Source of the DNA: Minisyncoccota bacterium
Lineage (GTDB): Bacteria; Patescibacteriota; Minisyncoccia; Phycocordibacterales; UBA9973
Reading direction: 5' to 3'
Length of the DNA stretch: 64,000 nt
Assembly: GCA_035714785.1 (NCBI GenBank)
Contig: DASTLQ010000008.1
Coordinates: 1,713-65,712 of the forward strand
The notes under the pieces are model-generated. The model worked only from the letters and a program-made list of their open reading frames with translations. It ran no database searches and was not told where the DNA came from. The position numbers and the translations under genes are program-made. This document shows, in pieces, positions 3,860-60,265 of the stretch; the stretch's first letter is position 1; the number at the start of each line of letters is the position of its first letter.

Positions 3860-4166
3860 GCGGGGTAGAGAAGTGGTATCTCACAAGGCTCAAATATGGG
3901 CCCCCCAATGAGAAATCATTGAGAGTGCATTTGCCAAATTCGGGGAAATCCTCCCTTTTCTTATGAAAAGAAAGACAATCCCGAGCTAAATCCTATATTT
4001 TTTATAGGTAAATGTGTAGAGACTAGATGGTAAACTCCTGCCTTTTAGGAAGGAGATGGTATAGTCCAGACCACAAATTTATCTTTAGCCTTTGGCTAGA
4101 GAGGAGCAGCGAAAGCTGTAGTGGTAAGCATAACCTTGAGACAGCCGTTCGAATCGGCTCCCCGCA
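3860..4166 (+). tRNA. tRNA (CAT anticodon; Met or Ile2) interrupted by a 238-nt group I intron in the anticodon loop
   Basis: The 5' exon is GCGGGGTAGAGAAGTGGTATCTCACAAGGCT and the 3' exon is CATAACCTTG..AGCCGTTCGAATCGGCTCCCCGCA. Together they give acceptor, D, anticodon (CT|CATAA) and T arms. The exon ends in U and the intron ends in G. Confidence 0.55.
3891..4128 (+). other. Group I intron (no ORF) within tRNA(CAT)
   Basis: The sequence contains an R-like element (TGTAGAGACTAGATGG) and an S-like element (GATGGTATAGTCCAGACC). The 5' splice site follows U and the intron ends in G. Confidence 0.55.
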
Positions 4167-10224: not shown

Positions 10225-11128
10225 AGGCTTTACGTTTGTGCTCTTCCCACATCACGAGGACTGGGGAGGCGAAGAATATCGATGAATATACGCCGAAGAT
10301 CATACCTGTAGTAAGCATGAATGCAAAGTATTTTGTAGCAGGTGGTCCAAAGAAAAATAGGGACAGCAATACCAATATAGTAGTGAGCGAAGTGAGTATG
10401 GATCGAGCATAAGACTGATCCAAGCTCTTGCCTACAATTTCTTCAAATTTTGAATGATGTTTTATATTGTCTTCGTTTCGAAGATTTTCTCGAATACGAT
10501 CAAAGACCACAATAGTGTCAGCAATAGAAAGACCGACGATGGTAAGCGCAGCTACCACGAATAATGAATCCGCCTCTACTCCAGTAAATTTAGAAAGTAA
10601 TGAAAATACTCCAGCTGCAATGATCACGTCGTGCAAAAGTGCAGCGATAGCGATCAGTCCGTATTTCCATGAAGAAACTGGATTAGAAACTTTTCTGAAA
10701 GCAAATGCGATAAAGCATACCACCGCGAAAGAAGAAAGGATGATGGCGGTAATGGCTTTTCTTGAAAGCTCTCTTCCTGTTGATGGACCGATGGAATTAA
10801 AGCTAGTCTCTACAAGCTCATACTCATCGCCTGCAGACATGACCGAAAGCAATGCTTGGTGTTCATCATCTGTGAGATCGCGAGTCTTTACGATATATCC
10901 TGATTCCCCTGTAGGCTGAAGCACCACGGAACCAAGACCAAGTAGCGCAAGCTCACTGTTTAAATCAACTTGTAGAGGTCTCTCCCCTACATAGGTTACT
11001 TCGGTAAGTGCACCTCCTTTAAAGTCTATCCCCATTTTTATTCCAAATACGGAAATAGAGATGATAGACAAAATCACTAGTATGATAGAGATAGCGACAA
11101 ATATTTTTTTGTGTTTAATTACAAACAT
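10223..11128 (-). CDS. secF: Protein translocase subunit SecF
   Basis: The 301-aa ORF has six TM helices and the conserved FKGG.. N-terminal region. It lies downstream of secD. Confidence 0.85.
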   Translation of the reverse strand: MFVIKHKKIFVAISIILVILSIISISVFGIKMGIDFKGGALTEVTYVGERPLQVDLNSELALLGLGSVVLQPTGESGYIVKTRDLTDDEHQALLSVMSAGDEYELVETSFNSIGPSTGRELSRKAITAIILSSFAVVCFIAFAFRKVSNPVSSWKYGLIAIAALLHDVIIAAGVFSLLSKFTGVEADSLFVVAALTIVGLSIADTIVVFDRIRENLRNEDNIKHHSKFEEIVGKSLDQSYARSILTSLTTILVLLSLFFFGPPATKYFAFMLTTGMIFGVYSSIFFASPVLVMWEEHKRKA

Positions 11129-11130
11129 AA

Positions 11131-12495
11131 TTATTTTTTAAATATTCTTGCATCGAATAAAAATCTAGCAACCTTTCCTTCTCCAATGAATGTCACCCCG
11201 TATAGGAACAATCTTGAAATCACTACGGCAGCAAACATAGAGACCAGCACACCCATTCCAAGCGTCAGAGCAAATCCTTTGATGAGGGAACTTCCAAACC
11301 AGAAAAGGATCACTGATGTAATCAGGGTAGAAATATTTGAATCACGAATAGAAAGCCATGCTCGGGCAAAACCACCATTGATGGAATCAAGAATGCTCTT
11401 TTCTTCTGCAAGCTCTTCTTTCATGCGCTCAAATATAAGGATATTGGCGTCGACGGCTATACCGAGGGAAATAATAAATCCAGCGATGCCAGCTGCCGTC
11501 AAGGTGACTGGAATCAATTTATATAAAGCTAAAATAACTGCCACATATACCGCCAAAGAAATGACGGCTAGTAATCCTGGCAGGCGGTACCAAAGAATCA
11601 AAAAGATTGCGATTGCAAGAAATCCAATTATAGCTGCTTTCACTCCAGCCTCTACTGCATTTTCTCCAAGGATTGCTCCGATGGTCTGCCTAGAAACCAA
11701 AGTAATCGGCACAGGCAAAGCTCCGGAATTTAATCTTCCGACAAGCGTCTTCGCTTCTTCAGGAGTAAACTGTCCAGAAATTTGTGCTACTCCATCTAAG
11801 ATTGGTTCGTTTACTGTTGGTACTGAAATTGGTGCACCATCTAGATAGATTGCGACTGGCTTTCCGACATTTGCTTTTGTAATTTCTGCGAAGAGTTCTT
11901 TTCCTCTTTCATCAAATTCAATTCCAACCAAAGGCTGTCGTGTTGTAGGATCAAATTGTAAATTTGCTCTCTTTAAAAATCTTCCAGTAAGCTCCGTAGA
12001 AACAAATTGAGAATTTGGGTCTATTGTTAGCTCTCCTTCTTCGGTGATAGTGTAGTTTAGTTCTGTTCCCTCTGGGGCTTCAATTTTAAATTCCAAAATA
12101 GGAGTCTCACCGATCATGGCCGCTGCTTGGTCTACGTCAGTCACTCCGGGTAAGTCTACAATAAGTTTTTCTCCACCTCCTTCTACAAATCCGCCTCGCT
12201 GTATTTGAACGAGTGGCTCAGATACTCCAAAAAGATTTACTCGGCGCTCAATCACGTCTCTTAAGGCGTCCATTGATTCGCCAATTTCTCCGGGAGCTAC
12301 TTCTGAAACGTCCGCTTCATAAACAAGATGACTTCCGCCCGAAAGGTCTAGTCCTAAGCGCAAAGGAAAATTGTGAAAGAAAGAAGTCTCATTTTCATAG
12401 TTCGTGTTTGCCCGTGGTTCTGATTTAAATACAAAAAATGCCACTGCGATTCCGAGCAGTAATATGATGAGCGCTCCTAGTCTTTTTTTCCACAT
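11131..12495 (-). CDS. secD: Protein translocase subunit SecD
   Basis: Large periplasmic domain followed by six C-terminal TM helices. The start is trimmed to MWKKRLGALII, because the ORF's N-terminal extension runs into the REP repeat. Confidence 0.85.
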   Translation of the reverse strand: MWKKRLGALIILLLGIAVAFFVFKSEPRANTNYENETSFFHNFPLRLGLDLSGGSHLVYEADVSEVAPGEIGESMDALRDVIERRVNLFGVSEPLVQIQRGGFVEGGGEKLIVDLPGVTDVDQAAAMIGETPILEFKIEAPEGTELNYTITEEGELTIDPNSQFVSTELTGRFLKRANLQFDPTTRQPLVGIEFDERGKELFAEITKANVGKPVAIYLDGAPISVPTVNEPILDGVAQISGQFTPEEAKTLVGRLNSGALPVPITLVSRQTIGAILGENAVEAGVKAAIIGFLAIAIFLILWYRLPGLLAVISLAVYVAVILALYKLIPVTLTAAGIAGFIISLGIAVDANILIFERMKEELAEEKSILDSINGGFARAWLSIRDSNISTLITSVILFWFGSSLIKGFALTLGMGVLVSMFAAVVISRLFLYGVTFIGEGKVARFLFDARIFKK

Positions 12496-17062: not shown

Positions 17063-17422
17063 ACAATAATGAAATTGCGATATATATACTGTCGCTCCCG
17101 CCGTGGCGGACGCGTTATGATTTTCAAATTTCTTAACAGGAATCGAACAATTAGTACTTCTCAGCTCTACACATTACTGTGCTTACACTTAAAGCCTATC
17201 AACCTGATCATCTCTCAGGGTTCTTAACGATTCCTAATCTTGAAGCTGGCTTCCCTCTTAGATGCTTTCAGAGGTTATCCATTCCCGACATAGCTACCGA
17301 GCAATCCACTTGGCAGTAGAGCTCGTACACCAGAGGTCAGTTCACGCCGGTCCTCTCGTACTAAGCGCAAATCTTCTCAAGAATCAACGAGTGCAGTAGA
17401 TAGGAGACCAACCTGTCTCACG

Positions 17423-17748
17423 CATCTACGTCCATAATTACTTATGGGATTGGACTATAGCTTCATCTTTCTTCAGTTTTTACTTGAATAAGACTGCTGA
17501 CGTTTAGTCTCTACGGGTTCCGCCTACTGGCAGATTCCCTCGGTATTGCCCTCACTTTCGTGATCGGGTTTCACCGATACTAGTCAGCTTCACGTCACGC
17601 ATTTCTGTGTGACGCCGCCGTGATGTGCTAAAGCAAATGAATGCCATGCACGTGGTTGTTTTCGATTTATAACAGTCTAATTCGTTCTGAATTATTTTCC
17701 TCTGTAGGGTTCAGATCGTCAAAACCACAAGTTTGTCTTATGATCTCA
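17423..17748 (-). other. Group I intron (ORF-less) in 23S rRNA at the E. coli position ~2593 equivalent
   Basis: Exon junction GGGTTCAGACCGT|intron|CGTGAGACAGG. The intron follows U and ends in G. R-like (GTAGAGACTAAACG) and S-like (GAAGCTATAGTCC) elements are present. Confidence 0.65.
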
Positions 17749-18411
17749 ACGGTCTGAACCCAGCTCGCGTACCTTTTTAATTGGCGAACAGCCAAACGCT
17801 TGGGAGCTTCTCCACCCCCGCGCTAAGGTGAGCCGACATCGAGGTGCCGAACTCCGCCGTCGATATGAACTCTTAGGCGGAACTAGCCTGTTATCCCTAG
17901 AGTAGCTTTTATCCGTTAATCTAAACCCGCATCTAATGCGAAATTTCGGTTCACTTAGTTCTGGTTTCCCACCTGCTCGGGAAGTACCCCTTACAGTCAA
18001 GCCATCTTATGCCTATACACTATCGGCACGGTTTCCATTCGCGCCTAGATGACCTTTAAACCCCTCCTTTACTTTTTAGGAGGGTACAGCCCCAGTAAAA
18101 CTATCCACCAGATACTGTCTCAGTCCGTTTTTTCCGTACTGGTTAGAACATGCCTTCAAAAAGAATGGTATTTCACTGACGAGTAGATAACAGCCGAAAC
18201 CGCTAACATCAGACCTCTCCCATCTATTCTACGCAGTTTAAAAACATGCTCAATATCAAGTTATAGTAAAGCTTCTAGGGTCTTTTCGTCTAACTGCACT
18301 TAACCGGCATCTTCACCGGTATTGTATTTTCACCGAGCTGGTCCCCGAGACAGTTTCCCAGTCATTACACCATTCGTGCGCGTCGGAACTTACCCGACAA
18401 GGTATTTCGCT

Positions 18412-18625
18412 CTTCTATACCCAAGAAGGACTCTATCTTCATCCTCTCCGAAGAGGTGGGATGCTTGACGCTGGTCTCTCGTTAGCCAAGTTTTGACTGT
18501 CTCTACATTACTCTAGAGCAGGTAGCATTCGAATAGTCTAATAATTTTTTAATTTAATTGTTTACTTTTTTCTACAACAGTCCCAGTCATTCCGCGCTCG
18601 TCTGCCATAGGCAAACAAATGCAGA
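18412..18625 (-). other. Group I intron (ORF-less) in 23S rRNA at the E. coli position ~1917 equivalent
   Basis: Exon junction GGTCCTAAGGT|intron|AGCGAAATACCTTGTCGGGTAAG. The intron follows U and ends in G. R-like (TGTAGAGACAGTC) and S-like (GAAGATAGAGTCC) elements are present. Confidence 0.6.
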
Positions 18626-18660
<35 letters not shown>

Positions 18661-19394
18661 CAGGGCTTATATCAGTCTGCATATCTCCATCTTGCGACAA
18701 AGAAACACCGCCGATATTTGACCTTCTGGCATTGGTCAGGTGTCACCCCCTATACATCCTCTTACCGAGTTCGCAGGGAGCTGTGTTTTTGGTAAACAGT
18801 TGCCAGGAATACTTTCGCTGCGGCCGGCATTTCTGCCGGCAAGCCTTATCCCGAAGTTACGGCTGCTTTTTTGCCGAGTTCCTTGGGGACCTCTCACTCG
18901 TTCGTCTTGGTCTACTCGACCTGATCACCTGTGTCGGTTTGCGGTACGGATTCCATATTTTTAAGTTTAGAGATTTTTCTTGGAAGCGTGCTTTGCGAAA
19001 TTGCCCTCGGCCTAAACCGAAAACTTTTCACTTCTCTTGGATTCGCTATTTAAAGCAGCGCGCGGATTTTCCTACGCATCATCCTCAAGAAGCAAACTTA
19101 AATCCATTAATAAGCGACGCATACTACACTCCGTCCTCTCATCACAAAATATGGAAGTGCAGAAATATTAATCTGCTCTTCCATCGGGTGCGGATTTCTC
19201 CATCCCCTTAGGCCCGACTAACCCTTGGCTGATTATCATTACCAAGGAAACCTTGATCTTTCGACGTGATGCGTTCTCAGCATCATTGCGGTTACTTGTG
19301 CCAACATTCTTACTTCCACACGCTCCATAGGCCCTCACGGGTCCTACTTCACAGCAGAGTGGAACACTCTCCTACCACTCGTGAACTTCATAGA

Positions 19395-19705
19395 GGAGCC
19401 GATATTTTTTTATATCGGCTTTCAAACAATTTCGGGGTTCTCCGCAACATCAATCCACACGTTCAGAACACCATATTTAACGTATTGGAGAACCCAAAAG
19501 AACAAATCGTGCCCAGGAAGCGGGATTAAAACCCGACAAAGACCTTCGTCTTTGTATGCTTTGTTTTAACAAAAATTTTTTAAATTAGTTTTTATTTAAA
19601 CATCGCCTGATTGTTACTACTACCGGCTCAATATATCATACACGATATACCAGTACGTAACCCTCCTGGGCTGGCCACCCACCTTGGATGCGAAACTCTT
19701 CCTCT
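19395..19705 (-). other. About 310-nt insertion in 23S rRNA at the helix-45-equivalent region (IVS-like, bounded by a ~16-bp long-range stem)
   Basis: It lies between conserved CCGAA.. and GGTAGGAGAGTGTTC. The flanks GAATTTCATAGAGGA / TCCTCTATGAAGTTC can pair with each other. No group I signatures were seen. Confidence 0.4.
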
Positions 19706-20409
19706 ATGAAATTCACGAATCCTCACATTCGGTACTATGCTTAGCCCCAATTATTTTCGACGCAAAATCTCTGGATGAGTGAGCTGTTACGCTATCTTTA
19801 AAGGATGGCTGCTTCTAAGCCAACCTCCTCATTGTCAGAGAAATTTCACCTTCTTGTCTTGCACTTAGCATAGATTTAGGGACCTTATATTGAGATCCGG
19901 GCTGTTTCCCTTTTCACCAATGGAGCTTAGCCCCCACGGTGTAACTGCCGCATTCTGGCTTCTGGTATTCGGAGTTTGATAGGTTTCGCGAGATTGCTCC
20001 CTGTCGAAACCTTCCAGTGCTCTACCCCCAAAAGAAACATGCGACGCTAGCCCTAAAGCTATTTCGGAGAGAACCAGCTATTACCAGGTTCGATTAGCTT
20101 TTCACTCCTTACCACAAGTCATCCCAACGCGTTGTACGACGAACGGGTTCGGACCTCCATAAGTCTTTCGACCTACTTCATCCTGCTCATGGCAAGCTCA
20201 CCTGGCTTCGGGTCTTATGCATGATATATTTATTTCGCGCTATTAACACTCGGTTTCCCTACGGCTCTGCGGTTCTCCCGCTTAACCTACAACATGCATA
20301 AACTCGTTGGCTCATTCTTCAATAGGCACGCTGTCGCAGATATAAATACCTGCTCCAACTCCTTGTAGACATACGGTTTCAGGTCTATTTCACTGCCCTA
20401 ATCGGGCTT

Positions 20410-20446
<37 letters not shown>

Positions 20447-21202
20447 ATCTGTTAGAGTATTTAGCCTTAGCGGTTAGTTCCGCTGGATTCCCCCCGGCCA
20501 TTCGTGTCCTGGGGTACTCAAGAACGGCAATAAAAGAGATAAATTATTTTCGCTTACGGGCCTATCACCCTCTATGGAACCGCTTTCCAGCAGTTTCAGC
20601 TAATAATTTATTTTTTTACTCTTCTAGTAATCTACATTGCCGCCTTACAACCCCCAAATATTGCTACTTGGGTTTGGGCTCTTTCCTTTTCGCTCGCCGC
20701 TACTTAGGAAATAATTTTTATTCTCTTTTCCACCTGGTACTGAGATGTTTCACTTCCCAGGGTGCGCTCTCTGAATCAAGTTCAGAGTTATTGAGGTTTG
20801 CTCAATAGGGTTTCCCCATTCGGAGATCTCCGGATATATTGGTTGCTAGGCACCTCCCCGGAGCTTATCGCAGCTATGCCACGTCCTTCATCGCCTCTAA
20901 CAGTCTAGGCATCCACCGTACGCCCTTAATTTCCTGTTAAGAAATCTGAAAATCATAATTTTCATTTAGCTTTCTTTTCCGACCGCTCGGCATAAGAAAG
21001 CTGTTCTACCTACCGACATAAAGACCCCTTGGAAAGATTCATATCTTTACAAAAGAAATTGTCGTAGTAGCTTTAAGTTTTCAATCTTCAATCCGTTTCG
21101 GCAAACAAAAAACCGCCTTGTGGGCGGCTAAAAGAAAAAAACTTCTCTTTAGCGCCGCCTTTTGAGTTTCGTGTTTTTCGTTATTGTCATACTGATTGGG
21201 CT

Positions 21203-51267: not shown

Positions 51268-51342
51268 CCTGTGGATAAAGTGTAAGGGGTCCCCTTGCAT
51301 GTTATCCACATGTGGATAAAGTGTAAGGGGTCCCCTTACACC
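51268..51342. repeat. REP-like repeat cluster R14 (2 core units, 3 DnaA-box 9-mers)
   Basis: CCTGTGGATAAAGTGTAAGGGGTCCCCTTGCATGTTATCCACATGTGGATAAAGTGTAAGGGGTCCCCTTACACC. Confidence 0.85.
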
Positions 51343-51343
51343 T

Positions 51344-52639
51344 TTAGATGAAAGTCAAAGCTGTGCCTTTCTTTCCGCTTCGACCTGTTCGGCCGATGCG
51401 ATGTACATAGGTATCGTAGCTTTGAGGAATGTCGTAGTTGATCACATGCGTCACATCAGGAATATCCAATCCTCGAGCGGCTACGTCAGTAGCGATCAGG
51501 ACAGTGATATGGTCTTTCTTAAAAGAATCCAATATCCGAATGCGTTCTCGGCTTCGTTTATCGCCGTGAATACCTGCAACTTTAAAACCAGATTTTGTGA
51601 GCTCTCGTGTCAGCTCGTCCACGCTGTGTTTCATCTCGCGAAAGATGAGCACCTTGCTTGAATCCACGTGTGAGAGCACTTCCTGTAGTTTTTCCAATCG
51701 ATCTTCCTTGCTTCGAGTGCGAATGATATCCTGATCAATATTCTTTGCCGTTTCTCCAGCAATCACAGAAATATAAACAGGATTTTTCAAAAAACTCCCT
51801 GATAATTTCTTTATTTCCGGTGAAAGTGTTGCAGAGAAAAACAGAGTCTGTCTGTCGGGCGAACTTTTTCCGATAATAGAAACCATATCATCGCGAAATC
51901 CCATGTCGAGCATGCGATCTGCTTCGTCGAGCACTATTCTCTTGTATGAGGATAGATTTAATACTTTTCTTTTGATGAGGTCCATCACTCGTCCCGGCGT
52001 ACCGATGACAAATGAAACTCCCCTTTCTACTTCGCGTATCTGTTTCATGATTGGAAGCCCCCCGACTACTGCTACTCCGTAGAGTCCTGAGCCAGAAGCG
52101 AGAGAGCGAAGCTCTTCTTCAATCTGGAGAGCAAGTTCCCGAGTAGGAGCAAGCACTAATACTTTTTCTGTACGGTCGTTCATCACCCGATCAAGCAAGG
52201 GTAAAAGAAATGCTGCCGTCTTTCCGGTACCAGTATTTGCCAAGCCAAAAACATCTTTTCCTTCTAGAATACTTGGAATAGCCTGGTCCTGAATAGGACG
52301 AGGATTTGCATATCCTTTCTTGGAAATATTTTTTTGAATTTGAGAATGGAAAGGAAAATCTGCAAAAGTATGTTTTGAAACATATTCCTTTTCTACCACG
52401 AATTGTGCTTTCTTTATGAAACGTGAAAAATCTATTCGCTCTCCACCTTTTCTTGCGAATCTTCCAGTAGATCGCCCTCTTAGAGAGCTACCACTATTTC
52501 TATTATTTCTTGCGCCAGCAAATCTGCTAGCGGGTTTTCCTCCCGCAAAACGAGAAGAAGAGCGTGTCGACCTTTGAGGGGGACGCGCAGAACTGCGTTT
52601 GTTTATCATATTCTTTTTTGTGTCATGGATATCAATCAC
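51344..52639 (-). CDS. DEAD-box ATP-dependent RNA helicase with RG/S-rich N-terminal extension
   Basis: AxTGTGKT, DEAD (VLDEADRM), SAT and HRIGRTGR motifs are present. Confidence 0.85.
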   Translation of the reverse strand: MIDIHDTKKNMINKRSSARPPQRSTRSSSRFAGGKPASRFAGARNNRNSGSSLRGRSTGRFARKGGERIDFSRFIKKAQFVVEKEYVSKHTFADFPFHSQIQKNISKKGYANPRPIQDQAIPSILEGKDVFGLANTGTGKTAAFLLPLLDRVMNDRTEKVLVLAPTRELALQIEEELRSLASGSGLYGVAVVGGLPIMKQIREVERGVSFVIGTPGRVMDLIKRKVLNLSSYKRIVLDEADRMLDMGFRDDMVSIIGKSSPDRQTLFFSATLSPEIKKLSGSFLKNPVYISVIAGETAKNIDQDIIRTRSKEDRLEKLQEVLSHVDSSKVLIFREMKHSVDELTRELTKSGFKVAGIHGDKRSRERIRILDSFKKDHITVLIATDVAARGLDIPDVTHVINYDIPQSYDTYVHRIGRTGRSGKKGTALTFI

Positions 52640-52782
52640 AAGACACTAAAAGTCATAGATGATTTCCACAAACTCAGTCTCGTTTATATTTAATAGTAAT
52701 TAGCCTAAATTGACGATATCGTGGCTAATTCGGTGAGAATGATGTATAGAGTTTAGCATTTCTAGACTTTTTTGTCAATATT

Positions 52783-52811
52783 TTGCTTGCTTATTTTTAA
52801 AAAGCTATAAT
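52783..52811 (+). promoter_or_regulatory. Candidate leaderless promoter for thyA
   Basis: TTGCTT, 17-nt spacer, TATAAT. The -10 ends 6 nt before the ATG. Confidence 0.5.
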
Positions 52812-52817
52812 CAACCC

Positions 52818-53690
52818 ATGAAAGCATATCTAGATATTTTGAAAAAAGTTTTAGACGAAGGGGTAAAAGTAGAGACCCGCACGGGTACTTCTGCCTTTAC
52901 TATTGCAGGAGCAATATTTGAGCACGACATGTCTCTCGGCTTCCCTCTTCTTACTACAAAAAAAGTTCCTTTTCGCCTAGTAGCCAGCGAGCTTGAATTT
53001 TTTATAAATGGAATCACAGACAAGAAATGGCTTCAGGATCGCAACAATCATATCTGGGATGAATGGGCAGCTCCAAAAAAAGCTCCCTACGGACACGACG
53101 AAGAATCTAAAAAAAGAATGCTCGAAGAGCGAGACCTCGGCCCTATCTATGGATTTCAGTGGCGCCACTTCAACGCACCGTATGAAAATTTTGACAGTGA
53201 TTATGCTGGCAAAGGTTTTGATCAACTAAAAAAACTTGTGGAGACTTTGAAAACAAATCCTCGTGATCGACGAATGATTGTAAGCGCATGGAATCCTCTT
53301 CAGTTTGACGAGATGGGTCTGCCTCCATGCCACTATTCTTTTCAAGTGACCGTAGTAGATGGAAAGCTCAATTTACTTTGGAATCAGCGCTCAGTGGATA
53401 CGATGCTTGGTCTTCCTTTCAACATTTCAAGCTATGCCTTACTTTTGCATCTCTTGGCAAAAGAAACGGGGCTGGCGGAAGGAAAACTGGTCGGTTTTCT
53501 CGGAGATGTGCATGTATATGAAAATCACATCGAAGGCGCCAAAGAACAACTCAGCCGAGATCCGAATAAATATCCTTTACCAAAAATTGAGACGGAAAAT
53601 TGGAAATCTATTTTTGACTGGCACTTCGAAGATACTAAAGTTTTGAATTATGAAAGTTATCCGCGGATTCCCTTGCCGATTGCGGTGTAA
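52818..53690 (+). CDS. thyA: Thymidylate synthase (ThyA)
   Basis: 290-aa ORF. The segment ..RRMIVSAWNPLQFDEMGLPPCHYSFQ.. contains the catalytic Cys. Confidence 0.9.
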   Translation: MKAYLDILKKVLDEGVKVETRTGTSAFTIAGAIFEHDMSLGFPLLTTKKVPFRLVASELEFFINGITDKKWLQDRNNHIWDEWAAPKKAPYGHDEESKKRMLEERDLGPIYGFQWRHFNAPYENFDSDYAGKGFDQLKKLVETLKTNPRDRRMIVSAWNPLQFDEMGLPPCHYSFQVTVVDGKLNLLWNQRSVDTMLGLPFNISSYALLLHLLAKETGLAEGKLVGFLGDVHVYENHIEGAKEQLSRDPNKYPLPKIETENWKSIFDWHFEDTKVLNYESYPRIPLPIAV

Positions 53691-53743
53691 AATTCAATAT
53701 TAAAAAGGCATGTCGGATATTTACACCGTACATGCCTTATTTT

Positions 53744-54451
53744 TTAATAATAGCAAAGAAAGCAGACCGCGTCTGTGCTTCCGAGATTTCCTCCATCGTC
53801 AAGCCTAATCTCACCTTTCCTATTTAATTCTCGACTGGCTGGAGTAATTTCAAAGAAAAGGTCGTCATATTTTTCCAGTGGCTCATTCATGAGAAAGAGC
53901 CTACGGAGGTCAAAAACTTGCATTGCCTTTTCAGTCATACACTGTGATAGGAGGAAAGCAATCTGATAACCCATTTTTGCGGGTATAAGCCTTACTCCAC
54001 TAGGTAAAACTAATCTTTTTTTCAGATTTGAAACAGACGGTAGTCTCTTTCTTCTCAGAATTAATATTTTCGAAAAAGAGTGAAAGTAAAAATGATACGC
54101 CTCCTGAAAAGAGAAGAATTTTTTCATAGTAATTATTTTTTCTTCCACTATTATCCCTTGTGACTCAAGAACCGAGAAAGATTCTTCAATCCTTTTTTGT
54201 TGCGCTTCAGAAGAATCAGGGTCTGCTTTTGACCAATCATACTTATAGAGCAGTAATTCTTTATTGCACTCTTTTTCTGCCCCAAATCTAATTCCGTGAA
54301 CATCTGCATTAGGCGCTACCATACTTGCCAAATCCAGATAAATAAGATTACTAACGCTCACCCAATATTGGTGTGGTCCGGACGGTCCCGATGTCCAATA
54401 CCCAAAAGGAATTTGGGGTATTTCCATAATAAGATTATTGCCATCTTCCAT
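53744..54451 (-). CDS. Hypothetical protein (island gene 1)
   Basis: 235-aa ORF preceded by the conserved promoter cassette. Confidence 0.4.
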   Translation of the reverse strand: MEDGNNLIMEIPQIPFGYWTSGPSGPHQYWVSVSNLIYLDLASMVAPNADVHGIRFGAEKECNKELLLYKYDWSKADPDSSEAQQKRIEESFSVLESQGIIVEEKIITMKKFFSFQEAYHFYFHSFSKILILRRKRLPSVSNLKKRLVLPSGVRLIPAKMGYQIAFLLSQCMTEKAMQVFDLRRLFLMNEPLEKYDDLFFEITPASRELNRKGEIRLDDGGNLGSTDAVCFLCYY

Positions 54452-54486
54452 TTCTTTATTCCTTATCTTTATTTGAAATTACATTT

Positions 54487-54603
54487 ATTTAAAATATCAA
54501 TATTTATTCATTACAGCATGTTTCATAACGATTAGTCAATATGGCATAAAAAACGCCCGTAGGTTATACGGGCGGAAGATTTGTGAAATCTTCAAAACTT
54601 TTC
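54487..54603. repeat. ~115-bp conserved intergenic cassette, copy A (terminator hairpin plus promoter)
   Basis: It is about 90% identical to 55280-55392. It contains the hairpin CGCCCGTAGGTTATACGGGCG. On the minus strand it reads TTGACT, 18-nt spacer, TGTAAT. Confidence 0.75.
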
Positions 54604-54655
54604 GCGGACAAAGGGCAAAGTGTCAAAAAGACCACAGTGCCCCAAGTCCAGAGTG

Positions 54656-55288
54656 CTACTTACTGAAGCGGAGAGCGGGGTAGTTGGAGTTCCAGTTGTA
54701 GTCCAGCGAGCTCCAGATCAGCCAAACCTCGTCGCCGCTGACGTAGAGATACGGGACATACAGGTCGCCGTCACGGTTCTGCACGACCGACTTCCAGAGG
54801 TAGACGGCCTTCCCTTGGAAGAGTTCGCGGAATACCATTATCCCTTTCGCCCGAATTGCGAGTCCATCTTGAAGGTTCAGGCAACCCTCAAGAAGATTAT
54901 TAACTTTAAAAGATTCGTAGATAGTGTTTCCACCAACTACTCCATTTTTTTGATCGTCGTGGAGCCACAGCTCCAGACTTGAGAGATCATAATTCTCTGG
55001 ACCAGAATTTTGCAATTCTGGATTTATAATCTCCTCCACCCAGACAGGAAACTTGGCATTTACGGAACGATCAACATTAATGGAAAAATTAAAATCGGGC
55101 TTCGGGATTATGAATCCCCGAGAAATTGCGTTTTTAAGCTCATCGAGATTTCCTTCGTAATACTCGATTTGCTTTTTCGTTAAAATAACGAAGTTTGGGA
55201 CCGCCTTAAGTCCCAAATTATAGGCACGAGCTAGCAAGGGTGTGTCTGTGTCCATGAGACGTTTCCTTTTTTTGTTATAAAATATCAA
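54656..55288 (-). CDS. Hypothetical protein (island gene 2; GC-rich 3' end; C-terminal Trp-rich motif shared with gene 3)
   Basis: 210-aa ORF with the C-terminus ..LWKSVVQNRDGDLYVPYLYVSGDEVWLIWSSLDYNWNSNYPALRFSK. Confidence 0.4.
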   Translation of the reverse strand: MIFYNKKRKRLMDTDTPLLARAYNLGLKAVPNFVILTKKQIEYYEGNLDELKNAISRGFIIPKPDFNFSINVDRSVNAKFPVWVEEIINPELQNSGPENYDLSSLELWLHDDQKNGVVGGNTIYESFKVNNLLEGCLNLQDGLAIRAKGIMVFRELFQGKAVYLWKSVVQNRDGDLYVPYLYVSGDEVWLIWSSLDYNWNSNYPALRFSK

Positions 55289-55392
55289 TATTTATTCATT
55301 ACAGCATGTTACATAGCAATTAGTCAATATGGCATAAAAAACGCCCGTAGGTTATACGGGCGGAGGATTTGTGAAATCTTCAAAACTTTTAA
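55280..55392. repeat. ~115-bp conserved intergenic cassette, copy B
   Basis: Same sequence as copy A. A partial third copy (promoter part) is at 56040-56075. Confidence 0.75.
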
Positions 55393-55397
55393 GCGGC

Positions 55398-55991
55398 CTA
55401 CTTGCGGAGACCGGCAAACCACCAGTCGTCGTCCCAAACAATGTCGCTCTGAAAGACACCGACGCCGCGCCTGCCGCCCCAACGACTGAAGGAGGAGTAA
55501 CACCACCGACCATCAGAATTTTTCCAGTGAGTACAGCTGGGATGGTTATCCCCAAATGTAGGGTCAACAGCATTAACAGCAGCCAAAGAATATGGATCAG
55601 CGGCTTCCAAGCCACGAATTTGATATTCTTTTTCCAAATCGTTGTCGCTTATAAAGCGACCAAGATTAAAGAATACTACCTCCACCTCATCACCTTCGCC
55701 TTTCGGCATTCCGGCGATAACTGAGTTATTCACATGTTGCTCCCGTCCTGTGGCGTCCAACACCTGCTGAGGTGTCAAACTGCGATTTACACGAATAGTC
55801 CTGACAATCAAATTACTCACAGCCTCAACACGGCTGCGAAAAATTGAAAACATATCATCAACGAGCCCACTTTGTCCAAGGGCTGTTTGTACCGCCCGTG
55901 AATCAAAGCTTTTGCTATGCTTTTCCAACATAGCTCGATAAAGACTAACAGCTTTATCAATCTGTCCAGATAGGGTCATGGTTTTTTCCAT
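55398..55991 (-). CDS. Hypothetical protein (island gene 3; higher GC than its surroundings)
   Basis: 197-aa ORF with the C-terminus ..HWKNSDGRWCYSSFSRWGGRRGVGVFQSDIVWDDDWWFAGLRK. Confidence 0.4.
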   Translation of the reverse strand: MEKTMTLSGQIDKAVSLYRAMLEKHSKSFDSRAVQTALGQSGLVDDMFSIFRSRVEAVSNLIVRTIRVNRSLTPQQVLDATGREQHVNNSVIAGMPKGEGDEVEVVFFNLGRFISDNDLEKEYQIRGLEAADPYSLAAVNAVDPTFGDNHPSCTHWKNSDGRWCYSSFSRWGGRRGVGVFQSDIVWDDDWWFAGLRK

Positions 55992-56115
55992 GGCGTTATC
56001 TCCTTATTATGTTATAAAACAACTTGTTACCTTTTTAATTACCGCATATTACATAGCAATTAGTCAATAGTACTATTTTAACACCATTAAAACTCTTATC
56101 TGCTAAAATATATCC

Positions 56116-56601
56116 ATGCTCTCCATGATCGCGGCCATTGGTAAAAATAAAGAACTTGGAAAAGGAAACACACTCCTCTGGGATTTGCCGCTCGACATGA
56201 AGCATTTCCGATCAACTACTTCAGGTCATCCTGTGATCATGGGACAAAGGACATTTGAATCTATCGGTCGTCCCCTACCCAAGCGAAGAAATATAATCTT
56301 GACGAGGGACCGAGAGTATCATCCAGACGGGACCGAAATTGCGCATAGTATAGAAGAAGCTATCGCCCTCCTCGATGCAAGCGAAGAAAATTTCGTAGTA
56401 GGAGGCGGACAAATTTACACCCAATTTTTAGAAAAAGCTGACCGCCTGTATCTGACGGAAGTGGATGCCGACTTTCCTGACGCCGATGCTTTTTTCCCAG
56501 AATTTATTAAAGACGAATGGAAAGTGGTGGCAGAAGAGAAACACGAAAAAGACGCAGAGCACCAATACGATTTCGTTTTTAAAATTTACGAGAGAAAATA
56601 A
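56116..56601 (+). CDS. folA: Dihydrofolate reductase
   Basis: ..MIAAIGKNKELGKGNTLLWDLPLDMKHFRSTTSGHPVIMGQRTFESIG... The -10 element TAAAAT lies 6 nt upstream of the ATG, which suggests a leaderless transcript. Confidence 0.85.
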   Translation: MLSMIAAIGKNKELGKGNTLLWDLPLDMKHFRSTTSGHPVIMGQRTFESIGRPLPKRRNIILTRDREYHPDGTEIAHSIEEAIALLDASEENFVVGGGQIYTQFLEKADRLYLTEVDADFPDADAFFPEFIKDEWKVVAEEKHEKDAEHQYDFVFKIYERK

Positions 56602-56640
56602 ATAACTCTGGTATAAAATACCAGAGTTAAATTTAAATTA
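56601..56640. terminator. Bidirectional terminator hairpin
   Basis: AACTCTGGTATAAAATACCAGAGTT flanked by A-runs and T-runs. Confidence 0.55.
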
Positions 56641-57079
56641 TTATTTGGCAAGGGGGAAAGATCATTTCCTTTTCCTTTGTACCCAACAATATTTTCCCTT
56701 CTTTTGGTTCTAGGAAAATTAACTGCCGGTTGGTGTACCCCACGATTGTAGGATACACTAGCCTCCTACTAAATGTATTTTTATCTTTCTCAAGCTCAAG
56801 ATAAGAATACATTCTTGCCCAAATTTTATTCAACCGAGTTTTCCCCATTTTAAAATCTAGAACGATTTCCTTTGCCATTTTTTCATTAGGACTTTCATAA
56901 ATACTTACAAGATAATCTCCTACCCAGCTCTCATCTCTCATGTTTAGAAAGATTCTGAACTCTAAAGCGACCATAACCTTGTCGCTGTTTAGAATTCTAG
57001 ACTTTACAATTTCTATCTCTTCTTTGGGTTTTTTAATTTTATCGAAACCGACAAAACTATAATCCGTGGGGAATCTCAA
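56633..57079 (-). CDS. Hypothetical protein
   Basis: 148-aa ORF. Confidence 0.4.
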   Translation of the reverse strand: MRFPTDYSFVGFDKIKKPKEEIEIVKSRILNSDKVMVALEFRIFLNMRDESWVGDYLVSIYESPNEKMAKEIVLDFKMGKTRLNKIWARMYSYLELEKDKNTFSRRLVYPTIVGYTNRQLIFLEPKEGKILLGTKEKEMIFPPCQIII

Positions 57080-57191
57080 CTTTCTACCTCCATATTAATA
57101 TTTTAAAAAACAAAAAGGCCTGATAGGCCCTTTACTCTTATGTTGACGATGACATCAGAGAATCCTGTCAAACCAAAATATTATGCTGAAT

Positions 57192-57521
57192 TTACGGGTC
57201 TATGTCAGTTTTAATGCGAATAAAGACATCTTTTCCGTCGGGAGACTTTTCTTTTCTGTATTTTCTGTTTTTATTTATTTCAATCTTGCGGGCCAATTCT
57301 TTTTCCAGATCATAGCCGAGAATCTCTGACATTCCTAAAAGAAAAACTGCCACGTCGGCAAGCTCTTCGGCTACGCCCTCTTCTCTATGAAAATATTTTC
57401 TAAAAGCTTCAGAAAGTTCTTCATGGGCACGGCAAAATTCTTCCGCTACATCAGTGGTATTAAATCCTTTCTCTATTTTATTTCTCATTACTTCTTTCTG
57501 AAGTGCAGTTAAATCAATCAT
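57192..57521 (-). CDS. MazG-like nucleotide pyrophosphohydrolase (small all-alpha NTP-PPase)
   Basis: EEFCRAHEELSEAFRKY and EELADVAVFLLGMSEILGYDLE fit the MazG EExxE/D pattern. Confidence 0.55.
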   Translation of the reverse strand: MIDLTALQKEVMRNKIEKGFNTTDVAEEFCRAHEELSEAFRKYFHREEGVAEELADVAVFLLGMSEILGYDLEKELARKIEINKNRKYRKEKSPDGKDVFIRIKTDIDP

Positions 57522-57523
57522 GA

Positions 57524-58006
57524 TTATTGGTTATCGTATTTTTCAAATTCTCCATTAATTATTTCAAGTTCTACCCCGGCTTCCTTAAATATTTCCTTGC
57601 TTCTCGTTCCTGCATGATAATCTTTCATGGTTACTACTCTTTTTATGCCAGCACTGATGATACCCTTGGCACATGAATAGCATGGAGTCATTTTACAGTA
57701 CAAAGTCGCACCATTTACCGCTATGCCAAATCTGGCTGCCTGAGCAATCGCGTTTTGTTCTGCATGAGCTGTGCGCACGCAATGCATGGACTCCGTTCCG
57801 TCTTCGTTTATTACCTTGTGCATCTCGTGTCCGGCTTCATCGCAGTGAGGAAGACCTGGTGGAGCACCGATATATCCAGTGGATATTACTCTTTTATCAA
57901 GAGTAATCACACATCCGCTCTTTCCCCTATCACACGTAGAGCGAGTACCGACATAATCAATCATTCCTATAAAATATTCATCCCAAGAGGGTCTTTCTAG
58001 AGCCAT
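57524..58006 (-). CDS. comEB: dCMP deaminase (ComEB/cytidine-deoxycytidylate deaminase family)
   Basis: The zinc motif is HAEQNA ... PCYSCAKGI. Confidence 0.85.
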   Translation of the reverse strand: MALERPSWDEYFIGMIDYVGTRSTCDRGKSGCVITLDKRVISTGYIGAPPGLPHCDEAGHEMHKVINEDGTESMHCVRTAHAEQNAIAQAARFGIAVNGATLYCKMTPCYSCAKGIISAGIKRVVTMKDYHAGTRSKEIFKEAGVELEIINGEFEKYDNQ

Positions 58007-58051
58007 GTATTAAATATACTCCCAAATAAAATAAAAACCAACCAGCAAAAC

Positions 58052-58105
58052 AGGGTAAGGGGACCCCTTACCCTGTGGATAACATGCAAGGGGACCCCTT
58101 ACACC
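58052..58105. repeat. REP-like repeat cluster R15 (2 core units plus DnaA-box 9-mer) abutting the rplK stop
   Basis: CAGGGTAAGGGGACCCCTTACCCTGTGGATAACATGCAAGGGGACCCCTTACACC. Confidence 0.85.
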
Positions 58106-58581: not shown

Positions 58582-59127
58582 CTATGTTCTCTTAACTTGC
58601 AAGAAGTCTAATTCTACTGGGGTTTCTCGGCCGAACATTGATACTAATACTTTTACCTTGCCTCTTTCTTGATCTACTGCATCCACTTTTCCTTCTAAAT
58701 CTCTAAATGGACCGTCAGTGATGCGTACCATTTCTCCGATTGCAAGATCAATATTGTGCTTTGCTGGTTCTCCATCCATTTTCTTAAACAGAAAATCAAC
58801 TTCGTCTTTTCGAAGGGGCACAGGATTTATTCCAGCTCCTACGAACCCAGTGACGCGTGGAGTGTTGCGCACTACGTACCATGAATCATCCGTCACTATC
58901 ATATCCACCAATACGTATCCGGGATATATTTTTTCTTCGACTTCTACCCTCTTTCCTCCTTTTACTTTTATTTTCTTTTCTACCGGTACTACTACATTAA
59001 AAATTTTCTCGTGCATCATCAGAGAGTCTATGCGCTGCTTCAAATTGCGCAGAACGACATTTTCGTATCCTGCGTAAGTATGAATGGCGTACCAATTTCT
59101 TGTACCTTGGTTTTCTTGCTTTGACAT
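58582..59127 (-). CDS. nusG: Transcription termination/antitermination factor NusG
   Basis: An NGN domain (NWYAIHTYAGYENVV) and a KOW domain (GEMVRITDGPFRDLEGKV) are present. The start is trimmed to MSKQENQ. Confidence 0.85.
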   Translation of the reverse strand: MSKQENQGTRNWYAIHTYAGYENVVLRNLKQRIDSLMMHEKIFNVVVPVEKKIKVKGGKRVEVEEKIYPGYVLVDMIVTDDSWYVVRNTPRVTGFVGAGINPVPLRKDEVDFLFKKMDGEPAKHNIDLAIGEMVRITDGPFRDLEGKVDAVDQERGKVKVLVSMFGRETPVELDFLQVKRT

Positions 59128-59140
59128 ATTATTTTTATTG

Positions 59141-59319
59141 TTAGAACAATAGCTCCAATGCTCGGAGGAAGATGAAGTCAAAGAGTCCGAGGAAATAAGC
59201 CACGAGGATGGAAAGAACAATAACGATAACAGTGTAATGCACTGTTTGCATCTTGCCTGGCCATACTACATGCCTCAATTCTCCTTTTATTTCTTTGAAA
59301 TATTCGGTTACTTTTGCCA
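59141..59319 (-). CDS. secE: Protein translocase subunit SecE (59 aa, below the ORF-track cutoff)
   Basis: The manual translation is MAKVTEYFKEIKGELRHVVWPGKMQTVHYTVIVIVLSILVAYFLGLFDFIFLRALELLF. It has a single TM helix and lies upstream of nusG. Confidence 0.55.
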
Positions 59320-59467: not shown

Positions 59468-60265
59468 TTAGCGGATGCGGTAAGTGATGGTTACGTTTGA
59501 GCTGATGGTATTTTCTCCGGCTGGTAGCTCGGCGGTCATTTTTGCTTCGTTGGCCATAGTTCGTACAGCAGAATCGTACATCATTGGATACATAGCTCCG
59601 TCGTTTTCCTCATAGAAAGATGCTACTCCTACAAGACGGACACCTAGATCCTTTGCTAATGCTTTTGCTTTTTCCCTGGCTTCATCGATTGCCTTCTTGC
59701 GAGCTTCTGCTGAGAGCTCATCTTTTTCATCGATTTCAAAGTTTGGACCTGATAGCTCTGTGACACCTACGGCTGCTAGGTCTTCCATGATTTTTCCAGC
59801 AGTATCAATGCTTCTAACTTTTACGCTAATAGTTTCAAAAGACTGATATCCAGTGATAGTATTTTTGCCTGGTCGAGGAGGACATCCGTATTGATTACAT
59901 GGCAGAGCTGTTCCGTAAACATATTCATACTTTGGATTGAAAGAAGCGCTCACTGTCTTTATATCTTTCTCTTCAATTTCATTTGTTCTAAGAACTTCAA
60001 GAGCTTTTGTTTCGATAGTTGCTACTTGCTCCTGTGCATCAGAGACAGTCTTTGCTTCACCTCTGATGGTAAAAGAAATAGTTGCAATATCTGGTACTGC
60101 ATTTACTTCCCCGCGTCCTGAGACTGTAATAGTATTTTCTAATCCGTCGTTACCTACGAAGCCAAATTCCTGAATGGACTTAATAGCAAAGTATACGGAA
60201 AGGATGATAAGGAAAACAATCGCAGCAAAAAACAGATTCTTTTTATATTGATTAGGTACGTCCAT
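59468..60265 (-). CDS. SIMPL (DUF541) domain protein, second paralog
   Basis: N-terminal TM helix and the SIMPL pattern (..TITVSGRGEVNAVPDIATISFTIRGEAKT..). Confidence 0.65.
   Translation of the reverse strand: MDVPNQYKKNLFFAAIVFLIILSVYFAIKSIQEFGFVGNDGLENTITVSGRGEVNAVPDIATISFTIRGEAKTVSDAQEQVATIETKALEVLRTNEIEEKDIKTVSASFNPKYEYVYGTALPCNQYGCPPRPGKNTITGYQSFETISVKVRSIDTAGKIMEDLAAVGVTELSGPNFEIDEKDELSAEARKKAIDEAREKAKALAKDLGVRLVGVASFYEENDGAMYPMMYDSAVRTMANEAKMTAELPAGENTISSNVTITYRIR

Follow-up and report, generated by a model that had tools for sequence, protein, structure and literature searches.

The genes thyA and folA are usually neighbours, and the locus described here raises the question of what three minus-strand genes of conspicuous base composition are doing between them. 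The window analysed is a stretch of 64 kb of an 83.7-kb contig from a Paceibacteria (CPR) genome, and its thyA-folA spacer holds a 2.4-kb insertion with three minus-strand ORFs, referred to as A, B and C (Table 1). A preliminary description of the sequence had stated both that the two flanking genes are commonly adjacent and that three minus-strand genes separate them here, and both statements proved correct: in 54 of the 65 evaluable loci of relatives the thyA-folA gap is shorter than 150 nt with both genes on the same strand. The comparison of synteny likewise upheld the insertion. The closest syntenic relatives show the order DEAD-thyA-folA-mazG-dcd with a thyA-folA spacing of 6-88 nt and no A, B or C, and DEAD-thyA-folA-(mazG)-dcd is conserved without any of the three genes at the loci L092, L093, L134 and L156. 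Judged from this absence at the same site, the 2.4-kb segment is a genuine insertion. No integrase or transposase ORF was found in 53691-56115, and a repeat scan returned no direct repeats flanking the island apart from its internal cassette. Gene A and thyA converge, and an inverted repeat between them is likely a bidirectional terminator.

Table 1. Features of the thyA-folA region (positions in the 64-kb window; VR, variable repeat)
Feature	Position	Strand	Remarks
thyA	52818..53690	+	left insertion border; homologues 62-82% identical adjoin folA in 54/65 evaluable loci
Inverted repeat, 12-nt arms, 16-nt gap	53702..53741		between convergent thyA and gene A; repeat scan and sequence
Gene A, 235 aa (NCBI call: 227 aa)	53744..54451	-	near-orphan, without variable repeat
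113-nt repeat, copy 1 (B-A gap)	54490..54602	-	minus-strand order: hairpin 1, terminator hairpin with T-run, promoter-like core
Promoter-like core TTGACT-N18-TGTAAT	54510..54539	-	upstream of gene A
Intrinsic-terminator-like hairpin CGCCCGTA-TAACC-TACGGGCG with T6	54548..54574	-	downstream of B
Hairpin 1, GAAGATTT-CAC-AAATCTTC, perfect 8-bp stem	54575..54593	-	RNA folding
Post-VR element, ~50-52-nt imperfect long hairpin of CTTNGNNC-like repeats	54602..54652	-	begins 6 nt past the B stop
Gene B, 199 aa, ATG start	54656..55255	-	~50-aa N-terminal module and C-type-lectin-like domain (predicted) ending in VR
Variable repeat of gene B, 127 nt	54660..54786	-	aligns over 127 nt with the L081 and L083 template repeats
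N-terminal module of gene B, MDTPLL.RAYNLGLKAVPNF...RGFIIP	55106..55255	-	common to proteins with other C-terminal domains
113-nt repeat, copy 2 (C-B gap)	55278..55390	-	96% identical to copy 1
Promoter-like core	55298..55327	-	upstream of gene B
Terminator-like hairpin with T6	55336..55362	-	downstream of C
Hairpin 1 behind C, one stem mismatch	55363..55381	-	RNA folding
Gene C, 197 aa	55398..55991	-	helical N-terminus and C-type-lectin-like domain (predicted) ending in VR
Variable repeat of gene C, ~100 nt	55402..55501	-	limits from homology with family members
Third repeat copy, partial, 38 nt	56032..56069	-	promoter-like core only; upstream of C
folA	56116..56601	+	right insertion border; ORF list and synteny

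The 113-nt repeats within the island could have produced a chimeric join, in which case the three genes would not truly lie together. A Logan assembly made independently from the same run matches the window at 100% identity over 51315-54519 and 55335-58081 by contigs carrying DEAD-thyA-A and C-folA-orf148-mazG-dcd, each of which extends into one repeat copy and ends there. Since these contigs match across both the thyA-A and the C-folA junction, the junctions are real. The interruption of this assembly exactly within both repeat copies would suit a chimeric join, and the exact product of gene B is not on record from Logan. However, both outer junctions are covered, the two copies can be phased because they differ at several positions, and it is only the place of B between the copies that is given by the MAG assembly alone; we hold an assembly artefact to be very improbable. 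For orf148, searches of Pfam, PHROGs, PADLOC and NCBIfam gave nothing usable.

The base composition gave the first access to the nature of B and C. A windowed scan verified that the composition is atypical and placed the deviation in what we regard as variable repeats (VRs): the window has a GC content of 41.6%, and the elevation is restricted to the 3'-terminal ~100-130 nt of the two genes B and C. The VR of B reaches 58.8% GC (GC3 86%) versus 42.5% in the remainder of the gene, and that of C 60.8%, with an A content of 11.8%, versus 44.6%; GC3 values of the two VRs are 74-86%. The high GC earlier ascribed to these two genes is hence a property of their VRs (59-61%), but not of the rest of each gene (42-45%) nor of gene C as a whole. 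As a sign of foreign origin the composition did not stand up; it appears instead as an imprint of DGR variable repeats, by which the odd compositional island is accounted for without foreign DNA. Similarly, the Trp-rich C-terminal motif reported as common to B and C is not backed by significant sequence similarity (BLASTP E>6; hhalign probability 8%, with a weak alignment outside the motif), whereas a common predicted fold and the VR nature of both ends remain. The motif was therefore rejected as evidence of homology. As A likewise has no detectable similarity to B or to C, the three genes are not paralogues. The sequences indicate that both the motif and the raised GC content belong to the variable repeats themselves. 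The locus as a whole is best explained by B and C being stand-alone DGR target genes in a three-gene thyA-folA insertion, a reading we hold with good confidence.

The evidence for this reading comes from the relatives of the two genes. Gene C has at least 421 homologues at 52-67% identity, and no Pfam or NCBIfam model exists for the family. It is 44-59% identical to the products of 80 genome loci, of which 44 possess an adenine-specific template repeat (TR) of ~100 nt, situated 309-436 nt past the stop codon. In these VR/TR pairs, which span ~100 nt with the VR ending just ahead of the stop codon, 654 of 687 mismatches fall on TR adenines. The TR is followed by an Avd-like ORF and by a reverse transcriptase (RT) of ~335 aa in which the motifs LGNLTSQ and YADD occur. 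These RTs share 61-66% identity with that of the family B locus L083, for which Pfam gives an RVT_1 match, and the Avd ORFs reach 72% identity with the L083 bAvd (PF22296), which is also found in cluster 2 of the C-type loci. Compared with the 44 heterologous TRs, the VR of the window's gene C mismatches at 60% of adenine sites versus 21% of others.

For family B, which also has no Pfam or NCBIfam model, about 75 homologues were detected. The gene product (the mechanical ORF with a TTG start reaches 55288) is ~55% identical to P0164 and P0148, for which 22 of 23 and 18 of 18 VR/TR mismatches lie at adenines, the same counts as in the 127-nt VR/TR pairs of L081 and L083; both loci have bAvd and RVT_1 neighbours. 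With the TRs of L081 and L083, which are heterologous, the VR of B is 82-83% identical, with mismatches at 10-11 of 33-35 adenine sites versus 12 of 92-94 others (29-31% versus 13%). In B as in C, mismatches to the heterologous TRs are over-represented at adenines. Seven further proteins, P0189-P0195, match just the N-terminal ~25% of B, at 59-73% identity. On this linkage in relatives, the families of B and C are to be regarded as two unannotated Paceibacteria families of DGR variable proteins.

Remote homology and structure were informative to different degrees. The family libraries remained empty for A, B and C, and profile searches versus PDB sequences returned nothing, but AlphaFold (AF2) models of B and C (pLDDT 92 each) appear C-type-lectin-like. 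The best Foldseek matches for C are C-type lectin domains, with weak scores, and the structural matches of the B and C models include the DGR proteins TvpA and Mtd. The modelled folds of both proteins resemble a C-type lectin with the VR at the C-terminus. By inspection, no signal peptide is evident in either.

The preliminary description had proposed horizontally acquired, duplicating cassettes encoding polymorphic toxin/immunity, phage-defence or addiction modules. The modular promoter-gene-terminator units inside a conserved operon and the shuffled N- and C-terminal modules of the proteins would suit such an origin. However, PADLOC gave 0 matches and Pfam, PHROGs and NCBIfam nothing significant, neither a toxin domain nor a small paired immunity gene is present, family C had no relatives in a scan of viral contigs, and both families are accounted for by their linkage to TR, Avd and DGR-RT in relatives. 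A toxin or defence function is in our view highly unlikely. The word polymorphic came close to the truth because B and C belong to families of hypervariable proteins, but in the toxin/immunity sense it has no support. Duplication has indeed occurred, but in the intergenic spacer and not in the genes, which do not represent one duplicated family.

Gene A stands apart from its neighbours. A word-indexed search returned the self-match only, and among 1.84 billion representatives just two relatives were found, P0197 (44% identity) and P0198 (27%); Pfam, PHROGs, PADLOC and NCBIfam contain no match, and the GC content is 38%. The P0189/P0193 family has a comparable tail ('CFxC') at the C-terminus, but the idea that gene A is a decayed offshoot of this family was rejected. 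We infer that gene A is a putative unrelated passenger.

The window itself does not contain a complete DGR locus as defined by an RT (motif 4 [I/L]GxxxSQ and YxDD), an adenine-specific TR/VR pair and avd; among relatives such a pair is present in 44 C-type and two B-type loci. A tblastn search of the window with the RTs of 12 relatives returned nothing (best E 0.005 over 52 aa), no match to Avd was found in the 64 kb, blastn with a word size of 7 revealed a second copy of neither VR that could serve as TR, and the conserved motifs of the DGR-RNA leader were not found in the window. Rfam contains no family for this leader or for the 5'-UTR hairpin. B and C nevertheless carry the marks of target proteins, namely homology to proteins with demonstrated VRs and a C-terminal VR in a predicted C-type lectin fold. 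As RT, Avd and TR are absent from the window, B and C are therefore either targets served in trans or orphans. Trans targets do occur in relatives: the VR of L066 differs from the TR of L077 at 16 of 24 adenine sites versus 3 of 73 others, and the VR of L039 from the TR of L025, a locus of the same MAG but a different contig, at 13 of 26 versus 0 of 73.

Behind gene B lies an element that bears on this alternative. The 3' flank folds with -43.5 kcal/mol (z -6.07), and the post-VR element shares 93-97% identity with its counterpart behind the VR of L083, a bona fide DGR locus, versus just 50-60% for the gene body. A second copy was sought in the window and was not found. Analogous arrays follow the VRs in C-type and B-type DGR loci, and the element of B is a candidate DGR target-recognition element. 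Gene C has no such array, with 7 nt separating its stop codon from the repeat, and folding shows only hairpin 1 and the terminator behind it; most family members carry the array, and a minority of the stand-alone homologues likewise do without. Hairpins were counted behind the family VRs in 17 of 45 sequences versus 4.6 expected from shuffled controls, counted per sequence. RNAalifold found no consensus structure in the unanchored post-VR alignment, which contained too many gaps. The 3' elements of B and C may act as recognition sites.

The alternative to rewriting in trans is that B and C once served as DGR targets and are now orphaned and fixed, their core being lost or never having arrived; they would now be ordinary lectin-like binders of frozen specificity, and their 3' elements terminators only. 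Besides the absence of RT, Avd, TR and DGR-RNA leader within 64 kb and the loss of the array from C, this is favoured by the carriers of the N-terminal module of B. P0124, which comprises the closest relatives of B with the same module, stands alone without an RT nearby and has a VR of lower GC which looks decayed; P0189 and P0194 also stand alone without an RT nearby, and the same P0194 sequence recurs in 23 contigs, an observation that speaks against continuing diversification in this subgroup. In addition, the VR of B retains 24 of the 35 adenines found in heterologous TRs and is hence only lightly diversified. On the other side, a non-coding element of 50 nt that resembles a live DGR locus far more closely than the adjacent gene body does is hard to maintain without selection or very recent transfer, the extreme GC3 of the VRs is still kept, and in relatives rewriting in trans has been demonstrated for stand-alone copies, one of which has no array. 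Orphaned targets are thus a possible but doubtful explanation. Under the preferred explanation, B is probably still rewritten in trans by a DGR core elsewhere in the genome, and C may be as well, with less certainty. The missing core in the 64-kb window, the missing array behind C and the stand-alone relatives of B were noted as observations against rewriting in trans. As the VRs of B and C are unrelated, two different TRs would be required.

The spacers between the genes are of composite nature. The near-identical cassettes of about 115 bp reported previously correspond to a 113-nt direct repeat (96% identity) and a 38-nt partial third copy, and the perfect hairpin with a T-run was recovered in each full copy. 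Further copies exist neither elsewhere in the window nor in 1.3 Mb of related loci, where the exact cassette has no ungapped match and the promoter-like core is absent. The window has three copies of this 30-nt core and no others, versus 0 expected. The sequence TTGACT-N18-TGTAAT looks like a promoter, but a sigma-70 scan passed over it on account of the G that stands in place of the usual A at position 2 of the -10 hexamer, and the second hexamer of the third copy reads GGTAAT. From conservation and position we infer a promoter. Hairpin 1 and the ~52-nt structured element behind B had escaped the preliminary description. Hairpin 1 matches a hairpin which precedes the terminator in the 3' flanks of DGR targets of relatives; similar flanks were found by blastn at L035/L036, L063 and L064 and on visual inspection at L008, L044 and L065. 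The upstream half of the repeat, consisting of hairpin 1 and the putative terminator, resembles the 3' flanks of DGR targets in some relatives.

The following course of events would combine these elements. A 2.4-kb insert with three separately transcribed genes would have been acquired in the thyA-folA spacer, and B and C would give rise to small soluble proteins with a C-type-lectin-like ligand-binding domain. In a DGR, transcription of the TR is followed by copying through RT and Avd, with adenines misread, and the cDNA takes the place of the VR, by which AAC-type codons on the lectin surface are rewritten. A history of DGR rewriting would account for 3' ends that are rich in GC and poor in A and for C-termini rich in Trp, Gly and Asp. 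The DGR-target-like 3' flank made up of hairpin 1 and the terminator is here joined to the promoter-like core of the next gene, and B has retained a post-VR element of the kind that follows VRs at bona fide DGR loci. A further idea, which we consider unlikely as it stands, is that hairpin 1, the terminator and the CTTNGNNC-repeat array of B form a portable CPR-DGR target-site module unlike the GC-hairpin/GRNA-loop of BPP-1. Hairpin 1 and the terminator are located behind two unrelated VR families, and B-type and C-type cores are closely related (RTs 61-66% and RNA leader 83% identical), so that one RT-Avd core might serve two VR families with two templates. If such a module existed, recombination there might recruit new genes or sites, e.g., the thyA-folA spacer, as targets.

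In kind, the island is a known system, DGR targets, in an unannotated form. Two families of 'hypothetical proteins', with >400 and ~75 detected homologues, become recognisable as DGR variable proteins of Paceibacteria. Stand-alone targets are missed by surveys that require a VR beside the RT, a limit stated in PMC8144416, so that DGRs probably extend further in CPR genomes than is appreciated. With the conserved post-VR array and a covarying 5'-UTR hairpin, testable candidates for cis elements of CPR DGRs are at hand; in the DGR literature surveyed, no published target-site work on either was found.

Variable proteins of a CPR-restricted DGR clade were reportedly described by Paul et al. in 2017 in Nat Microbiol. 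DGR clade 2 is confined to CPR, and its targets have no recognisable domains (PMC8144416, Roux et al. 2021). Like these, B and C are small Patescibacteria proteins without a recognisable Pfam or transmembrane domain, with modular N-termini and a C-terminal VR in a predicted lectin-like fold, and homologues of their families lie beside TR, Avd and RT with adenine-specific mismatches. Unlike clade 2 loci, B and C stand alone without a DGR core within 64 kb, two target families are found side by side with one common 3' cassette, and the families are absent from Pfam and NCBIfam. The BPP-1 DGR (Mtd; PMC3240598) also has its VR at the 3' end of a gene for a C-type lectin fold, and as predicted for B a structured inverted repeat lies shortly downstream of the VR, past the end of TR/VR homology, with terminator-like stem-loops following; there, IMH and a downstream hairpin suffice for targeting (PMC3240598). 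In BPP-1 the stem of the target site measures 8 bp, is GC-rich, carries a GRNA tetraloop and lies within 24 bp of the VR, whereas B has a putative imperfect hairpin of ~50 nt, followed by two more hairpins. Remote targets have been documented (PMC5758913), and in Treponema denticola (TvpA; PMC5758913, PMC4891356) one core serves several non-adjacent targets, comparable to the in-trans rewriting in relatives of B and C. The Treponema targets have one VR type matching one TR, in contrast to the unrelated VRs of B and C. The two systems also differ in that TvpA is a lipoprotein and no signal peptide is apparent here. With polymorphic toxin/immunity cassettes, B and C have in common the shuffled N- and C-terminal modules, the variable C-termini and an island-like location, but toxin/immunity domains and a secretion-system context are missing, and variability in the families of B and C derives from templated adenine mutagenesis, in the toxin cassettes from cassette recombination.

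The stretch with the genes A, B and C is a real island in the thyA-folA spacer. It lies on an 83,675-bp contig from a MAG of Candidatus Paceibacterota (CPR/Patescibacteria), on which the three genes carry the locus tags VFQ59_01495-01505. The ORFs described as splitting two usually adjacent genes were confirmed: of the 65 cases that could be evaluated among 80 metagenome loci with ThyA proteins of 62-82% identity, 54 have folA behind thyA, in the same orientation and less than 150 nt away, and the gap measures 6-88 nt in L092, L093, L134 and L156, which share the wider neighborhood (DEAD helicase, thyA, folA, mazG-like gene, dCMP deaminase). Neither A, B and C nor a reverse transcriptase (RT) or accessory protein (Avd) was found near thyA in any of the 80 loci. 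In an independent Logan assembly built from the same run, contigs are identical to positions 51315-54519 and 55335-58081, both stopping inside the intergenic repeat; since they run across the thyA-A and C-folA junctions and reach into the repeat, these junctions are real.

Features of the thyA-folA spacer and its borders
Feature	Position	Strand	Remark
thyA	52818-53690		left of A
gene A	53744-54451	minus	ORF between thyA and folA
direct repeat, full copy	54490-54602		113 nt; full copies 96% identical
gene B	54656-55255	minus	ORF between thyA and folA
direct repeat, full copy	55278-55390		113 nt; full copies 96% identical
gene C	55398-55991	minus	ORF between thyA and folA
repeat, partial third copy	56032-56069		38 nt
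folA	56116-56601		right of C

Compared with syntenic relatives, orf148 (56633-57079, minus strand) between folA and the mazG-like gene is another insertion, the gap there being 6-112 nt in L092, L134 and L156; orf148 gave no match in Pfam, PHROGs, PADLOC or NCBIfam. In L091, L092, L094 and L156, a long inverted repeat (CCCGTACTAAATTTT ... AAAATTTAGTACTGGG) encloses the short thyA-folA spacer; possibly a regulatory structure or an attenuator, it has no counterpart in the window. Elsewhere in the window, the 23S rRNA gene (17132-20939, minus strand, 3.8 kb) contains a group I intron (17431-17640, minus strand) and a further match to a group I intron is located near tRNA genes (3881-4088, plus strand).

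A, B and C had no match in curated libraries. More than 400 homologs of C were found (about 200 aa, 52-67% identical), all from Paceibacteria-type MAGs or metagenomes. For 80 genome loci of this family the neighboring ORFs were clustered. Downstream of the C homologs, 40 loci encode an RT of about 335 aa with the hallmarks LGNLTSQ and YADD of diversity-generating retroelements (DGRs), and 26 loci carry, on the opposite strand, an ORF for a four-helix Avd-like protein of about 130 aa. A further short “ORF” there repeats the C-terminus of C in an Asn-rich form and is, by its mismatch pattern, the template repeat (TR): in 44 loci a repeat of about 100 nt lies 309-436 nt past the stop codon, and 654 of 687 mismatches to the 3' end of the gene, the variable repeat (VR), fall on template adenines. 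Adenine-specific mismatches between VR and TR are the defining signature of DGRs. The AlphaFold2 model of C from the family alignment (pLDDT 92) gave C-type lectin domains such as BDCA2, mincle, LOX-1 and langerin as top Foldseek matches, albeit weak ones (E 0.15-0.5, TM about 0.44).

Family B comprises 75 homologs, and its model was equally well defined (pLDDT 92). Behind those on the long contigs L081 and L083 come bAvd (PF22296) and RVT_1, and in their 127-nt VR/TR pairs 22 of 23 and 18 of 18 mismatches are at adenines. With RTs 61-66% identical, Avd proteins up to 72% and RNA leaders 83%, the DGR cores of both types are, as judged from these identities, close relatives. The N-terminal module of B, about 50 aa long (M.TPL.KRAYNLGLKAVPNF...RGFIIP), also occurs in P0189-P0195 (L170-L173), where it is joined to three or more other C-terminal domains with VR-like ends.

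The high GC content reported for the second and third genes is confined to their VRs (B 58.8%, GC3 86%; C 60.8%, only 11.8% A), the remainder of the genes amounting to 42.5% and 44.6% compared with 41.6% for the window. The VR of B aligns with the heterologous templates of L081 and L083 over the full 127 nt (82-83% identity), with mismatches at 29-31% of adenine sites versus 13% of other sites; for C and 44 heterologous templates, the values are 60% and 21%. The Trp-rich C-terminal motif noted in the preliminary description represents the conserved framework of two distinct lectin-type VRs and not a sequence homology between B and C, of which none is detectable. A duplicating gene family is likewise not seen, as A, B and C have no detectable similarity to each other. 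Gene A (38% GC) has neither a VR-like end nor a family match; 1.84 billion representatives yielded one clear relative, P0197 (44% identity), whose stand-alone gene adjoins rplU, and a marginal one, P0198. It appears to be a passenger which acquired the same upstream cassette.

Both full repeat copies contain the described hairpin with T-run (CGCCCGTA-TAACC-TACGGGCG, then T6), and folding revealed a second one, hairpin 1 (GAAGATTT-CAC-AAATCTTC). The proposed promoter TTGACT-N18-TGTAAT fared less clearly: its 30-nt core occurs three times in the window, only at the repeat copies (0 expected by chance), but the sigma-70 scan did not list it, the second hexamer having G at position 2, which leaves the promoter role putative. 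This downstream half of the repeat has no counterpart among the relatives examined; 1.3 Mb of related loci do not contain the core. Behind the VR stop codon, relatives typically have about 50 nt in which CTTNGNNC-like repeats abound, and a hairpin of 5-7 bp is frequent there (at least 5 bp in 17 of 45 sequences; 4.6 expected, shuffle maximum 12). In L008, L035/36, L044, L063, L064 and L065 there follow an element like hairpin 1, which in the repeat precedes the terminator hairpin, an intrinsic terminator ending TTTTTTATGC and the DGR RNA leader. B shows the same series as far as the terminator, including an additional imperfect hairpin of about 51 nt between stop codon and repeat (whole 3' flank -43.5 kcal/mol, z -6.07), whereas in C the stop codon is followed by 7 nt and directly by hairpin 1 and terminator. 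By these arrangements the upstream half of the repeat resembles the 3' flank of a DGR target.

No RT, Avd, second copy of either VR or DGR RNA leader motif is present in the 64-kb window. B and C might therefore be orphaned, former DGR targets, though this is the less likely reading. Activity would require two different templates, and the nearest relatives sharing the N-terminal module of B (P0124) stand alone with no RT nearby, as do the two other module carriers looked up, P0189 and P0194, the latter unchanged across 23 contigs from many samples. However, many family-C genes stand alone (36 of 80 loci without TR in the sequence examined), and two of them have demonstrably been rewritten in trans, judging from their substitutions: L066 differs from the L077 TR, with which it shares a contig, at 16 of 24 adenine sites versus 3 of 73 others, and L039 from the L025 TR, which lies in the same MAG but on a different contig, at 13 of 26 versus 0 of 73. 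The post-VR element of B, about 50 nt and non-coding, is moreover 93-97% identical to that of L083, with 50-60% in the gene body and a collapse of similarity just past the element. This near-perfect conservation argues for activity, and B is probably a live DGR target. For C this is uncertain; its missing array is not disqualifying for trans activity, since L039 also lacks a long one.

Stand-alone family-C genes lie beside an rpsL-rpsG-fusA-tuf-like cluster (L006, L013, L056, L058, L071) or between homologs of window 59468-60265 and 58582-59220 (L038, L075). As these sites differ between genomes and are uninterrupted in the window, the target gene relocates on evolutionary time scales. In many Paceibacteria, family-C targets possess a conserved 5'-UTR hairpin of about 20 bp (L011:5906-5982, L033, L043, L035, L076; alignment A6), for which RNAalifold predicted 20 pairs, 18 with compensatory changes, in 27 loci, followed by a near-invariant AAAGGAGGATGACGCCATG. 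It has no Rfam family and may be a cis-regulatory element; upstream of C it is absent, 55989-56005 retaining just RBS and start. Between target terminator and TR, B-type and C-type loci share a conserved non-coding region of about 230 nt (GGYAGTAGGTGAATATG...CCAGTATCCATACATTGAGA...; L035:6716-6967, L083:8930-9098, L081, L008, L044, L064) at 83% identity, with an extended -10-like box, TGCTAAAAT, upstream; likewise without Rfam family, this region probably forms the 5' portion of the DGR RNA. tRNA genes lie directly upstream of the target in L081 and L011 and also downstream of the RT in L081 (L081:7304-7761, 10667-11338; L011:5661-5732), where a serine recombinase adjoins the RT.

The feature of the preliminary description is real and its observations were largely correct, while the functional interpretation is replaced: B and C are variable-protein genes of DGRs with no retroelement nearby. 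The few new elements are a pair of target families lacking annotation, their position as stand-alone genes between thyA and folA, the 3' module they share, and a candidate for a post-VR element specific to CPR. In BPP-1, IMH and a downstream hairpin/cruciform are sufficient for targeting (PMC3240598). DGRs are enriched in CPR, with a CPR-restricted clade 2 whose targets have no recognizable domains (PMC8144416); the NAR survey, in which most CPR VRs stayed unclassified, documents non-adjacent targets too (PMC5758913). B and C fit that framework, but they stand alone without a local retroelement.
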